This document shows, piece after piece, positions 2,895 to 4,083 of a DNA stretch of 10,664 bases. The notes under the pieces are model-generated. The model searched no databases and was not told the DNA's origin. It was given only the letters and a program-made list of their open reading frames with translations. Position 1 is the stretch's first letter. Each line of letters begins with the position of its first letter. Both the position numbers and the translations under genes were made by a program. Source of the stretch: a virus (Duplodnaviria > Heunggongvirae > Uroviricota > Caudoviricetes); IMG/VR virus record IMGVR_UViG_2675903575_000010, positions 1 through 10,664 of that record, one strand, 5' to 3'.

Positions 2895-3101
2895 ATGTTA
2901 AATCATACCACACACCCGCAAGGGCGGGACTCGCACAACCTGAATAAATACATCTGGCGTTTTATCGCCCTGAGCGCGGCACAACCGCGCGTGATTACCA
3001 TTGAGGCCACCAACGAACAGGAAGCGCGTCAGCAATCTCCTGATGGCTGCGTGATGGTATTCGCCGCCCGTATTCGTCAGGAGGTGCGCCATGTGCAATA
3101 A
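2895..3101 (+). CDS. Small protein (68 aa), first gene of early operon; possibly Icd-like (host cell division inhibitor family), tentative
   Basis: ATG at 2895 with GAGGT 4 nt upstream. The 372-aa ORF in the track (1983-3101) is read-through of non-coding DNA; only this 3' part looks like a gene. The family call rests on a remembered resemblance, not a search. Confidence 0.5.
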   Translation: MLNHTTHPQGRDSHNLNKYIWRFIALSAAQPRVITIEATNEQEARQQSPDGCVMVFAARIRQEVRHVQ

Positions 3102-3543
3102 CACCCGTCAGGACGCAGCCGCCGAAGCCATCAAAACGCTGATGCACGCGCTGATTGATATTTCTGTTATCGCGGACAGGGCACATAAGCACGCCACCAG
3201 CGAAACAGAATATGCCGGGGCTTTCGTTCCTCACTCACTGGCTGTTATGCAATTTAGTGCTGATATGGCACTGAATGAGGCTAAAGCCATCCTGATTACT
3301 GATTGTGAAAATGGGGGGGTTATGCGTGATGATCGTTTTAATGCCCTGAAACAGGAATTTTCCGGCGTTCCTGGTGATGCGGCTGATGCGCTTTCGTCAA
3401 TGCCAGAACTTATTAGAGCGGATTTTTTCTTACTTTCCACGAAAGAATATAAATCAACGGGACTTGATGTACTGAATATTGCCGCCGATTATGCTGATTT
3501 CGTGACAGAGGTTATTTTAAGAAAAGCGACGGACGGGGATTAA
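3091..3543 (+). CDS. Hypothetical protein (150 aa)
   Basis: ATG preceded by AGGAGG (about 3080-3085). Overlaps the upstream ORF by 11 nt, suggesting translational coupling. No family recognised. Confidence 0.6.
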   Translation: MCNNTRQDAAAEAIKTLMHALIDISVIADRAHKHATSETEYAGAFVPHSLAVMQFSADMALNEAKAILITDCENGGVMRDDRFNALKQEFSGVPGDAADALSSMPELIRADFFLLSTKEYKSTGLDVLNIAADYADFVTEVILRKATDGD

Positions 3544-3544
3544 T

Positions 3545-3778
3545 ATGCGTGATATTTACCACGAAACAATAGACCGCGCATTTCTTGCACTTTCTCACAG
3601 TGAAAACATGTTGGAAATATTGCGCTTATGGCTTGAAACGCTTGGCGATAATGAACGCGACAAACAAAAATCCCGAATTGTCACGGCATTAATAACGCTT
3701 CTTGAGCCTGTAATAATGGAACTACAAGAAATAGACCTATTGCACGACAGATATAAAGAACAGCACACCGGAGAATAA
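3545..3778 (+). CDS. Hypothetical protein (77 aa)
   Basis: ATG 1 nt after the upstream stop (TAAT ATG), tightly packed in the operon. No family recognised. Confidence 0.55.
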   Translation: MRDIYHETIDRAFLALSHSENMLEILRLWLETLGDNERDKQKSRIVTALITLLEPVIMELQEIDLLHDRYKEQHTGE

Positions 3779-3783
3779 AAATA

Positions 3784-4083
3784 ATGAAACTAAAATATCC
3801 TGGCTTAACTGCCAGCGGAAAAACTCGCACTAAATTCATGCGCGGTGATATTTACCGCGACCAGTACGGCGGCACGGTAATGATTAAGGGCGTGGAGGAA
3901 CGGCGCGTAACTTACCGCCGTGAAGGTTACGAATATGATTGCGTGATGCCTGTTTATCAGTTTGCCCGTGATTTCTCTCTGGTACAGACCGCGCCGCATA
4001 ACGTGCCCACCAGCAACGCCAGGGCACGGGCAAACATCCAGAAGCTGAAAACCATGATTAACGCATTCAGGGGTAAAAAATGA
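3784..4083 (+). CDS. Hypothetical basic protein (99 aa)
   Basis: ATG at 3784 with GGAG upstream. Its stop overlaps the start of the primase gene (ATGA). No family recognised. Confidence 0.55.
   Translation: MKLKYPGLTASGKTRTKFMRGDIYRDQYGGTVMIKGVEERRVTYRREGYEYDCVMPVYQFARDFSLVQTAPHNVPTSNARARANIQKLKTMINAFRGKK

Follow-up and report, generated by a model that had tools for sequence, protein, structure and literature searches.

The DNA analysed here, a stretch of 10,664 nucleotides that we refer to as the window, is positions 1 to 10,664 of the IMG/VR virus record IMGVR_UViG_2675903575_000010 (Caudoviricetes), and our study concerns the four small open reading frames (ORFs) that precede its replicase gene. 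A chromosomal island that matches it with 100% identity is present in E. coli strain UTAK-5, between tRNA-Pro (adjoining yejM) and host genes, and the window is an E. coli phage-inducible chromosomal island (PICI) that has tRNA-Pro as its integration site. The genes in question, all on the plus strand, are the following.

2895-3101, plus strand: ORF1, 68 aa, ATG start, Icd-like
3091-3543, plus strand: ORF2, 150 aa
3313-3319, plus strand: poly-G tract of seven residues (G7), at the junction of the N and C modules of ORF2
3545-3778, plus strand: ORF3, 77 aa
3784-4083, plus strand: ORF4, 99 aa, RgdR orthologue
4080-5885, plus strand: P4-family/D5-type replicase, 601 aa

The initial annotation had described ORFs of 68, 150, 77 and 99 aa in tight succession, and we recovered all four at exactly the same coordinates and with the junctions it had given, namely an 11-nt overlap between ORF1 and ORF2, a 1-nt gap between ORF2 and ORF3, a 5-nt gap between ORF3 and ORF4 and an ATGA overlap of ORF4 with the replicase gene. 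Its remark that a plausible Shine-Dalgarno motif precedes each start also holds good (GAGG, AGGAGG, GGGGA and GGAGA for ORF1 to ORF4, the last with a rather long spacer of 9 nt), and a similar motif, AGGGG, stands before the replicase start. The four ORFs are co-oriented and coupled and run into the replicase gene behind a sigma-70-like promoter. In our view they are most likely, with a probability of about 0.72, the genes nearest the promoter in the early (replication) operon of an E. coli PICI, forming a host-takeover and replication-support module and not a housekeeping one. Together with the replicase they make up the standard, known early operon of E. coli PICIs, found in about one complete E. 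coli genome in three (part of region 2700-4300 matches 1833 of 5426).

Comparison with related islands speaks for the reality of all four genes. The order ORF1, ORF2 modules, ORF3, ORF4, replicase N-terminus is shared by 80 related IMG/VR loci gathered with ORF3 as query. ORF3 is 77 aa long in 78 of the 79 loci with a call and ORF4 is 99 aa long in 74 of 76, while the 5-nt gap between the two is kept in all 76. The ratio of non-synonymous to synonymous substitution rates (dN/dS), pooled over distinct homologues in the annotated frame, is 0.41 for ORF1, 0.33 for ORF2, 0.21 for ORF3 and 0.27 for ORF4. That some of the ORFs are spurious, as chance or shadow frames, is extremely improbable: each of the four matches an independent NCBIfam, Pfam or PHROG model, their lengths, starts and junctions are kept across divergent alleles, the annotated frame has the lowest dN/dS of the six for ORF2, ORF3 and ORF4, and the orthologue of ORF4 has a proven protein product with phenotypes. 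What favours such a view is a 68-aa antisense ORF that mirrors ORF1, together with the dN/dS of 0.37 in the wobble-sharing antisense frame, which ties with that of ORF1 itself. The initial annotation had named two outcomes that would count against it, a lack of conservation and coding signal or homology to housekeeping replication accessory proteins; the genes proved to be conserved and under purifying selection (dN/dS 0.21-0.41), and no such homology was found.

The ORFs are also specific to satellites. A tblastn search of 50,697 phage records returned two small satellite-like records only, and P4 was absent from the matches. ORF2 and ORF3 belong to small acidic helical families that are found almost only in satellites. 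A sequence search of solved structures with all four ORFs gave nothing below E = 0.2, and PADLOC-DB yielded no defence model at E <= 0.1 for the four ORFs or their neighbours. The earlier statement that none of the ORFs belongs to a nameable family stands for ORF2 and ORF3, but ORF1 (Icd-like, NF033153) and ORF4 (PF13973/DUF4222, RgdR orthologue) can both be assigned; in the same way, the label of candidates for new functions now fits only ORF2 and ORF3, which are already in PHROG families without known function.

ORF1 matches the Icd-like model NF033153 over residues 19-62 with 69.8 bits, against a curated cutoff of 25 (E = 1.5e-19), falls in phrog_6196 and has an isoelectric point (pI) of 9.3. 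In BLASTP it is 35% identical over 49 aa to Icd of phage P1, a profile of 44 ORF1-family sequences scores P1 Icd at 27 bits, and the two proteins share the motif WRF...A..E.EAR...P.G...F.AR. Judged by these matches, ORF1 is a homologue of the P1 cell-division inhibitor Icd. Its genetic setting is similar in part: ORF1 is the first cistron, overlaps ORF2 and has a covarying leader hairpin upstream, and P1 Icd, in the immI operon c4-icd-ant, is likewise about 70 aa long, encoded by the first cistron after a structured leader and overlapping the next gene (according to the P1 annotation, icd follows the C4 RNA and has an ATGA overlap with ant1). The P1 record describes icd as 'inhibitor of cell division; apparently required for expression of ant'. 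The two loci differ in that the genes downstream of ORF1 in the window do not encode an antirepressor, the leader hairpin is of another kind, and a C4/CI-type antisense RNA was not detected with Rfam. In P4 the corresponding place is held by kil/eta, and it is the translation of this gene that governs read-through of the left operon (PMC10111431); most P4-like elements and PICIs have been reported to carry Icd-like genes (PMC13612085).

PGAP calls ORF1 as a protein of 159 aa from position 2622 of the window. We prefer the 68-aa call because the longer version would start upstream of the predicted promoter at 2757-2786 and because PGAP itself gives 62-65 aa in sister islands; other gene calls start at the homologous ATG. 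In the same frame as ORF1, and continuous with it, an open frame of 372 codons (1983-3101) begins 5 nt past the alpA stop. An in-frame open stretch of 260-435 codons precedes ORF1 in most related loci, compared to 1-11 codons for the other two frames. A nested arrangement of a long and a short form is known from P4 Eta/Kil and might also apply to the 372-codon frame, parts of which PGAP at times annotates ('Icd-like with long N-terminal extension'). We did not adopt it as an Eta-like long form of ORF1: it has no family match, its composition is non-coding-like, and genuine minus-strand genes occupy its wobble-sharing frame.

The last of the four genes, ORF4, encodes a DUF4222 protein (PF13973; 84.6 bits against a gathering threshold of 27, E = 3.4e-24, residues 17-68) with a pI of 10.2 and an RGD tripeptide at residues 20-22. 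It is 85% identical over all 99 aa to the DUF4222 protein of O-island 51 (OI-51) in E. coli O157:H7 Xuzhou21, and the latter has the residues published for ECs1581 (D10, R20, Q27, K35, H45 and R61). ECs1581, or RgdR, is encoded on O-island 51/CP-933C of E. coli O157:H7 and has a length of 99 aa (Flockhart et al. 2012, PMC3378721). An identity above 77% was the criterion used for RgdR orthologues, and an 83%-identical variant from CFT073 was shown to be active (PMC3378721). On this evidence from sequence, ORF4 is an orthologue of RgdR/ECs1581. Both are 99 aa long, with a DUF4222 core at residues 20-68, the RGD at 20-22 and a GLTxSG N-terminus, and both are encoded directly upstream of the island replicase within a PICI; RgdR was found to be encoded in all E. 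coli PICIs analysed by Fillol-Salom et al. The differences are A10, R45 and A61 in ORF4 for D10, H45 and R61 in ECs1581, the location of the islands (tRNA-Pro/yejM for the window, roxA-phoQ for OI-51) and the type of replicase. RgdR activates LEE1 and type III secretion, represses motility and raises Congo-red binding, and its DNA binding is weak and non-specific (PMC3378721). The AlphaFold2 model of ORF4, with a core pLDDT of about 90, predicts a Tudor/KOW/SH3-like barrel followed by a C-terminal helix. Fold searches pointed to a generic small beta-barrel, with the UvrD/PcrA Tudor domain, CarD and Spt5 KOW at the top and Foldseek E values at or above 0.016; we do not claim that ORF4 binds RNA polymerase.

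The two remaining genes are those without a named relative. ORF2 is acidic (pI 4.6) and all-helical and consists of an N module (3091-3321) fused to a C module (3322-3543) that has its own ATG. The whole protein matches phrog_2512, residues 1-73 match phrog_5146 and residues 78-150 match phrog_24341. Among 1.84 billion proteins, the family accounts for only 59 clusters at 50% identity, and many of these hold the N or the C module alone, residues 1-77 and 78-150 being separate proteins in relatives. Its AlphaFold2 model, built with 22 homologues, contains helices only and has a pLDDT of 51.

The length of the poly-G tract between the two modules decides whether ORF2 exists as one fused protein or as two overlapping genes. 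Among related loci with identical flanks, the tract is G7 in 18, G8 in 24, G9 in 10, G10 in three and G11 in one; G7 and G10 leave ORF2 fused, whereas G8, G9 and G11 split it, with the C module starting from its own ATG. Two islands that are 99.9% and 99.7% identical to the window have G8 and G9, respectively, and PGAP annotates two genes there. These differences in length may reflect phase variation, or else homopolymer sequencing error.

ORF2 sits in a slot of island-variable gene content. The distance from ORF1 to ORF3 ranges from 183 to 1094 nt among related loci, and between one and five small ORFs occur there, most of them paralogues of the ORF2 modules. In profile comparisons, the ORF2 modules scored below 1 bit against the 61- and 63-aa proteins of OI-51, and their scores against the 64-aa protein of the capsid-forming PICIs vB_KppS-Ant and ABW_S38 (Ant/ABW) were insignificant. 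High variability of this slot is what would be expected of a specificity determinant, and it bears on the possibility that the operon is primarily an abortive-infection or superinfection-exclusion device, in which an incoming phage protein would be sensed, perhaps by ORF2-type slot proteins, and the Icd-like protein would kill or arrest the cell. Such a function, which is compatible with an early operon of the kind that we propose, is conceivable as the primary one, but we think it has the odds against it. An argument for it, and the nearest functional precedent for the block as a unit, comes from strain ECOR61, in which a six-gene 'prophage' locus that includes an Icd-like gene and a primase kills the cell upon expression of the phage gene orf24; transposon suppressors of this effect fell in the Icd-like gene and the two next genes, of 186 and 192 nt, with overlaps of 8 nt and 1 nt (Silas et al., bioRxiv 10.1101/2023.04.06.535777). 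The O157 OI-51 operon also has six genes, encoding an Icd-like protein, proteins of 61, 63 and 80 aa (the last of the ORF3 family), RgdR and the replicase, and the sizes and overlaps of the two that follow the Icd-like gene equal those of the ECOR61 suppressor genes. Because of this match, we interpret the ECOR61 system as a PICI early operon of the OI-51 type and hence as a sister of the block in the window, with which it shares the layout of an Icd-like gene, small overlapping ORFs and a primase; the ORF1, ORF3 and ORF4 families are common to the OI-51 operon and the window. On the other hand, the equivalence with ECOR61 rests on gene sizes and overlaps, the ECOR61-type slot genes (61 and 63 aa; phrog_3672 and phrog_1478) differ from ORF2 (phrog_2512) and are not detectably related to its modules, and the PADLOC models match none of the four ORFs. 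Furthermore, reconstitution in a laboratory strain was 'muted' (bioRxiv 10.1101/2023.04.06.535777), and death could be the mere result of unscheduled satellite induction, given that overexpression of AlpA alone is harmful (PMC6092414).

ORF3 is very conserved (82-100% identity). It is acidic (pI 5.0) and predicted to be helical, falls in phrog_2196 (E = 5e-41) and shows reciprocal cross-matches with phrog_5796, the 80-aa protein that precedes RgdR in O157 OI-51. An identity of 35% relates it to the 72-aa protein encoded just before the replicase in two capsid-forming PICIs, vB_KppS-Ant of Klebsiella and ABW_S38 of E. coli. Its gene is always the one directly upstream of the RgdR gene or, in islands that lack RgdR, of the replicase gene. 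A scan of GTDB genomes with an alignment of the ORF3 family, which samples the cross-genus distribution of the family poorly, found one locus, in the Klebsiella source of vB_KppS-Ant.

The coupled block ends with the replicase gene, whose product is assigned to the 'DNA primase family' with D5_N, DUF5906 and Pox_D5 (Pfam, NCBIfam). Its C-terminal 459 aa are 50% identical to residues 313-771 of P4 alpha; since the alignment to alpha begins only at residue 313, the replicase, despite its 'primase' name, seems to be without the alpha primase domain. Its N-terminal 120-145 aa (phrog_2850; 4080-4480) are 72-86% identical across sister-island replicases, in which the catalytic parts are of the P4/D5 type, a RepA helicase or DUF927. 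The N-terminus is a swappable module that always comes after RgdR. ORF3 and ORF4 travel together with this module while the catalytic part switches types, ORF4 is ATGA-coupled to the replicase gene, and P4 cnr likewise lies directly upstream of alpha, all of which would suit ORF3 and/or ORF4 as replication accessory factors or copy-number regulators that target the replicase in the way that P4 Cnr targets alpha, the published RgdR phenotypes then being side effects. We consider such a role unlikely. In sequence, ORF4 is unlike Cnr/DUF5375 and ORF3 is unlike any P4 protein, and the alleles of ORF4 do not co-vary with those of the replicase N-terminal domain. In addition, the Ant/ABW-type capsid-forming PICIs are without DUF4222 yet have a 76%-identical replicase, and the pri-ori fragment of EcCICFT073 replicates alone (PMC6092414).

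The location of the four genes had been described as one that commonly holds helper-sensing, derepression or helper-interference factors in satellites, and as far as position goes this stands, since the four genes occupy the place that kil/eta, epsilon (the helper derepressor), orf151 and cnr take in P4. ORF2 and/or ORF3 might therefore be helper-derepression or interference factors like epsilon, binding the repressor or a morphogenesis protein of the helper. Epsilon occupies the same place directly after kil/eta, small size, acidity and helical structure are typical of protein-binding inhibitors, and the slot is modular and differs between islands. Comparison of ORF2, ORF3 and ORF4 with P4 epsilon, orf151 and cnr by BLASTP and by profiles, including custom hidden Markov models of the N and C halves, gave insignificant scores only, so that profile searches show no similarity to epsilon. 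Moreover, in published descriptions of Gram-negative PICIs it is the helper that induces the island and not the reverse (PMC6092414), and helper specificity would be expected to vary, whereas ORF3 scarcely does. An epsilon-like function appears even a little less likely than one in copy-number control.

Upstream of ORF1 lies a region with the following features, which bear on how the operon may be controlled.

2261-2458, minus strand: small gene, phrog_21027
2516-2695, minus strand: YlcI/YnfO-family gene, 59 aa, basic (NF041551, E = 4.9e-19; phrog_949)
2757-2786, plus strand: sigma-70 promoter, TTGACG, 18-nt spacer, TATAGT (10 of 12 in the promoter scan)
2762-2774 and 2785-2797, plus strand: two direct 13-bp repeats, GTGGGCCACACCT, which abut the -35 element and overlap the -10 element
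2824-2858, plus strand: leader stem-loop (RNAalifold, single-sequence fold)

The position of the -35 element is fixed across about 45 distinct related loci. The sequence of the repeats, by contrast, differs by island type, pairing one-to-one with the allele of the YlcI/YnfO gene and not with that of ORF1. Because the repeats co-vary with the YlcI allele whatever the ORF1 allele, this pairing suggests that the YlcI-type gene and the repeats are a candidate type-specific repressor/operator pair for this operon, of interest for Gram-negative PICIs in general, in which the identity of the master repressor has been called unclear. The match of the protein to NF041551 is above the curated cutoff, and the protein looks ribbon-helix-helix-like; in the literature we found no paper on the function of the YlcI/YnfO family. 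Beyond the 3' ends of the minus-strand genes, the same strand has two strong terminator-like hairpins (2037-2010 and 2160-2135), and they fit a short leftward YlcI-phrog_21027 transcription unit converging on alpA.

The leader (2824-2875) contains the hairpin, in which six of the eight predicted pairs show compensatory double changes (RNAalifold, 29 sequences), followed by a near-invariant C-rich CTAACCA(C/A)CAACG and then by the ribosome-binding site of ORF1. In a whole-window Rfam scan, the hairpin had no match at E <= 1, including to C4 and isrK, and it has no U-tract. It may be an immunity or antitermination element unlike P1 C4 and P4 CI.

Taken as the early operon of the island, the block would operate as follows. 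A helper phage would switch the island on, and the whole block would be made together with the replicase. AlpA is the helper-induced activator of PICI genes (PMC6092414), and by analogy with characterised PICIs induction would go through AlpA, the divergent YlcI-like repressor probably also being involved. The Icd-like protein would be predicted to arrest host division, as P1 Icd does and P4 Kil reportedly does, and the translation of ORF1, as the first cistron, likely couples expression of the genes that follow. RgdR, which is basic and has a predicted Tudor/KOW-like barrel, would reprogram host transcription if it behaves as its published counterpart does, while the acidic ORF2 and ORF3 may be protein-binding adaptors or sensors directed toward host, helper or replicase partners. 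Several points weigh against this interpretation. The identity between ORF1 and P1 Icd is no more than 35%, the score of ORF1 against P4 Kil/Eta is insignificant (3.4 bits), the predicted structure of ORF2 is unreliable at its pLDDT of 51, and the published RgdR phenotypes concern host virulence genes and not the satellite life cycle. The activities attributed to the four ORFs are all transferred from homologues.

A bolder version of the same idea, which we regard as doubtful, is that Icd, variable slot, ORF3, RgdR and replicase make up a modular phage-sensing suicide or takeover switch common to E. coli PICIs. Slot proteins of the ORF2 type, which diversify fast, would set the phage protein that triggers it, toggled between fused and split states at the hypermutable poly-G tract, and Icd would be the effector. 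The RgdR barrel would dock on RNA polymerase or else antagonise H-NS, the latter idea being suggested by the resemblance of the RgdR phenotypes (LEE1 up, motility down, more Congo-red binding) to loss of hns. A ribbon-helix-helix repressor of the YlcI/YnfO type, not recognised before, would gate the block via island-type-specific operators, and if true, it would supply the 'missing' master repressor of Gram-negative PICIs.

As a locus, the early operon is largely ordinary among elements of this type. Two of its products already have names and one has published phenotypes, while ORF2 and ORF3 are uncharacterised. RgdR is known as a virulence regulator of enterohaemorrhagic E. coli, and its native role and mechanism in the satellite are worth following up. 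The ORF3 family and the variable ORF2 slot represent uncharacterised proteins conserved across very many genomes, and an operon of the same layout has already been linked to phage-triggered cell death. Finally, the covariation of YlcI-type repressor and operator offers a testable answer to the question of how Gram-negative PICIs stay silent.

The rest of the window holds the following features.

1-1242: integrase
1772-1978: AlpA-family helix-turn-helix protein
5926-6105: iteron-like region
Between the iteron-like region and the capsid fusion gene: an 81-aa ORF, then SSB
7468-9381: ClpP-protease/major-capsid fusion, 637 aa
Downstream of the capsid fusion, within 7468-10131: Nu1-type small terminase (TerS)

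The region at 5926-6105, directly 3' of the replicase gene, is AT-rich, with repeated GTGAACAG-type units and long inverted symmetry, and it is probably the iteron-type replication origin of the island. Rfam matches to eukaryotic (plant) miRNA and snoRNA families on this region, which were the sole Rfam matches in the whole window, were dismissed as false positives. The capsid genes at 7468-10131 comprise one ClpP-like prohead protease/major capsid fusion and a Nu1-type TerS, and there are no portal or connector genes within the window. This content of capsid genes is intermediate between classical and capsid-forming PICIs.

Gram-negative PICIs were recognised here by int, alpA, pri-rep with an adjacent ori, packaging genes, a size of about 10-15 kb and a dedicated attachment site; in the window these correspond to the integrase, the AlpA-family protein, the replicase with the iteron-like repeats beside it, the capsid fusion with TerS, and the site at tRNA-Pro. 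The same organisation is known for these islands (PMC6092414; PMC10111431), which have been divided into integration, 'Bro'/immunity, replication and late zones (Fillol-Salom 2018; Mageeney 2023), and the window keeps their canonical order of int, alpA, Icd-like gene, RgdR, pri-rep with iteron-like region, SSB, capsid gene and terS. It departs from it in that no Bro-N protein is encoded between alpA and the Icd-like gene, two minus-strand genes, the YlcI/YnfO-family gene and that of phrog_21027, standing there instead. Compared to P4, the window has the divergent YlcI-like gene, lacks sid, delta and psu and shows no detectable homology between its ORF2 to ORF4 and epsilon, orf151 and cnr, and it is a PICI and not a P4-like element. 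Its order and logic are nevertheless like those of the P4 left operon (vis - kil/eta (+cI RNA) - epsilon - orf151 - cnr - alpha), with an AlpA/Vis-type regulator, an Icd/Kil-like ORF, three small ORFs and a replicase, with a helicase part 50% identical to alpha, in succession.

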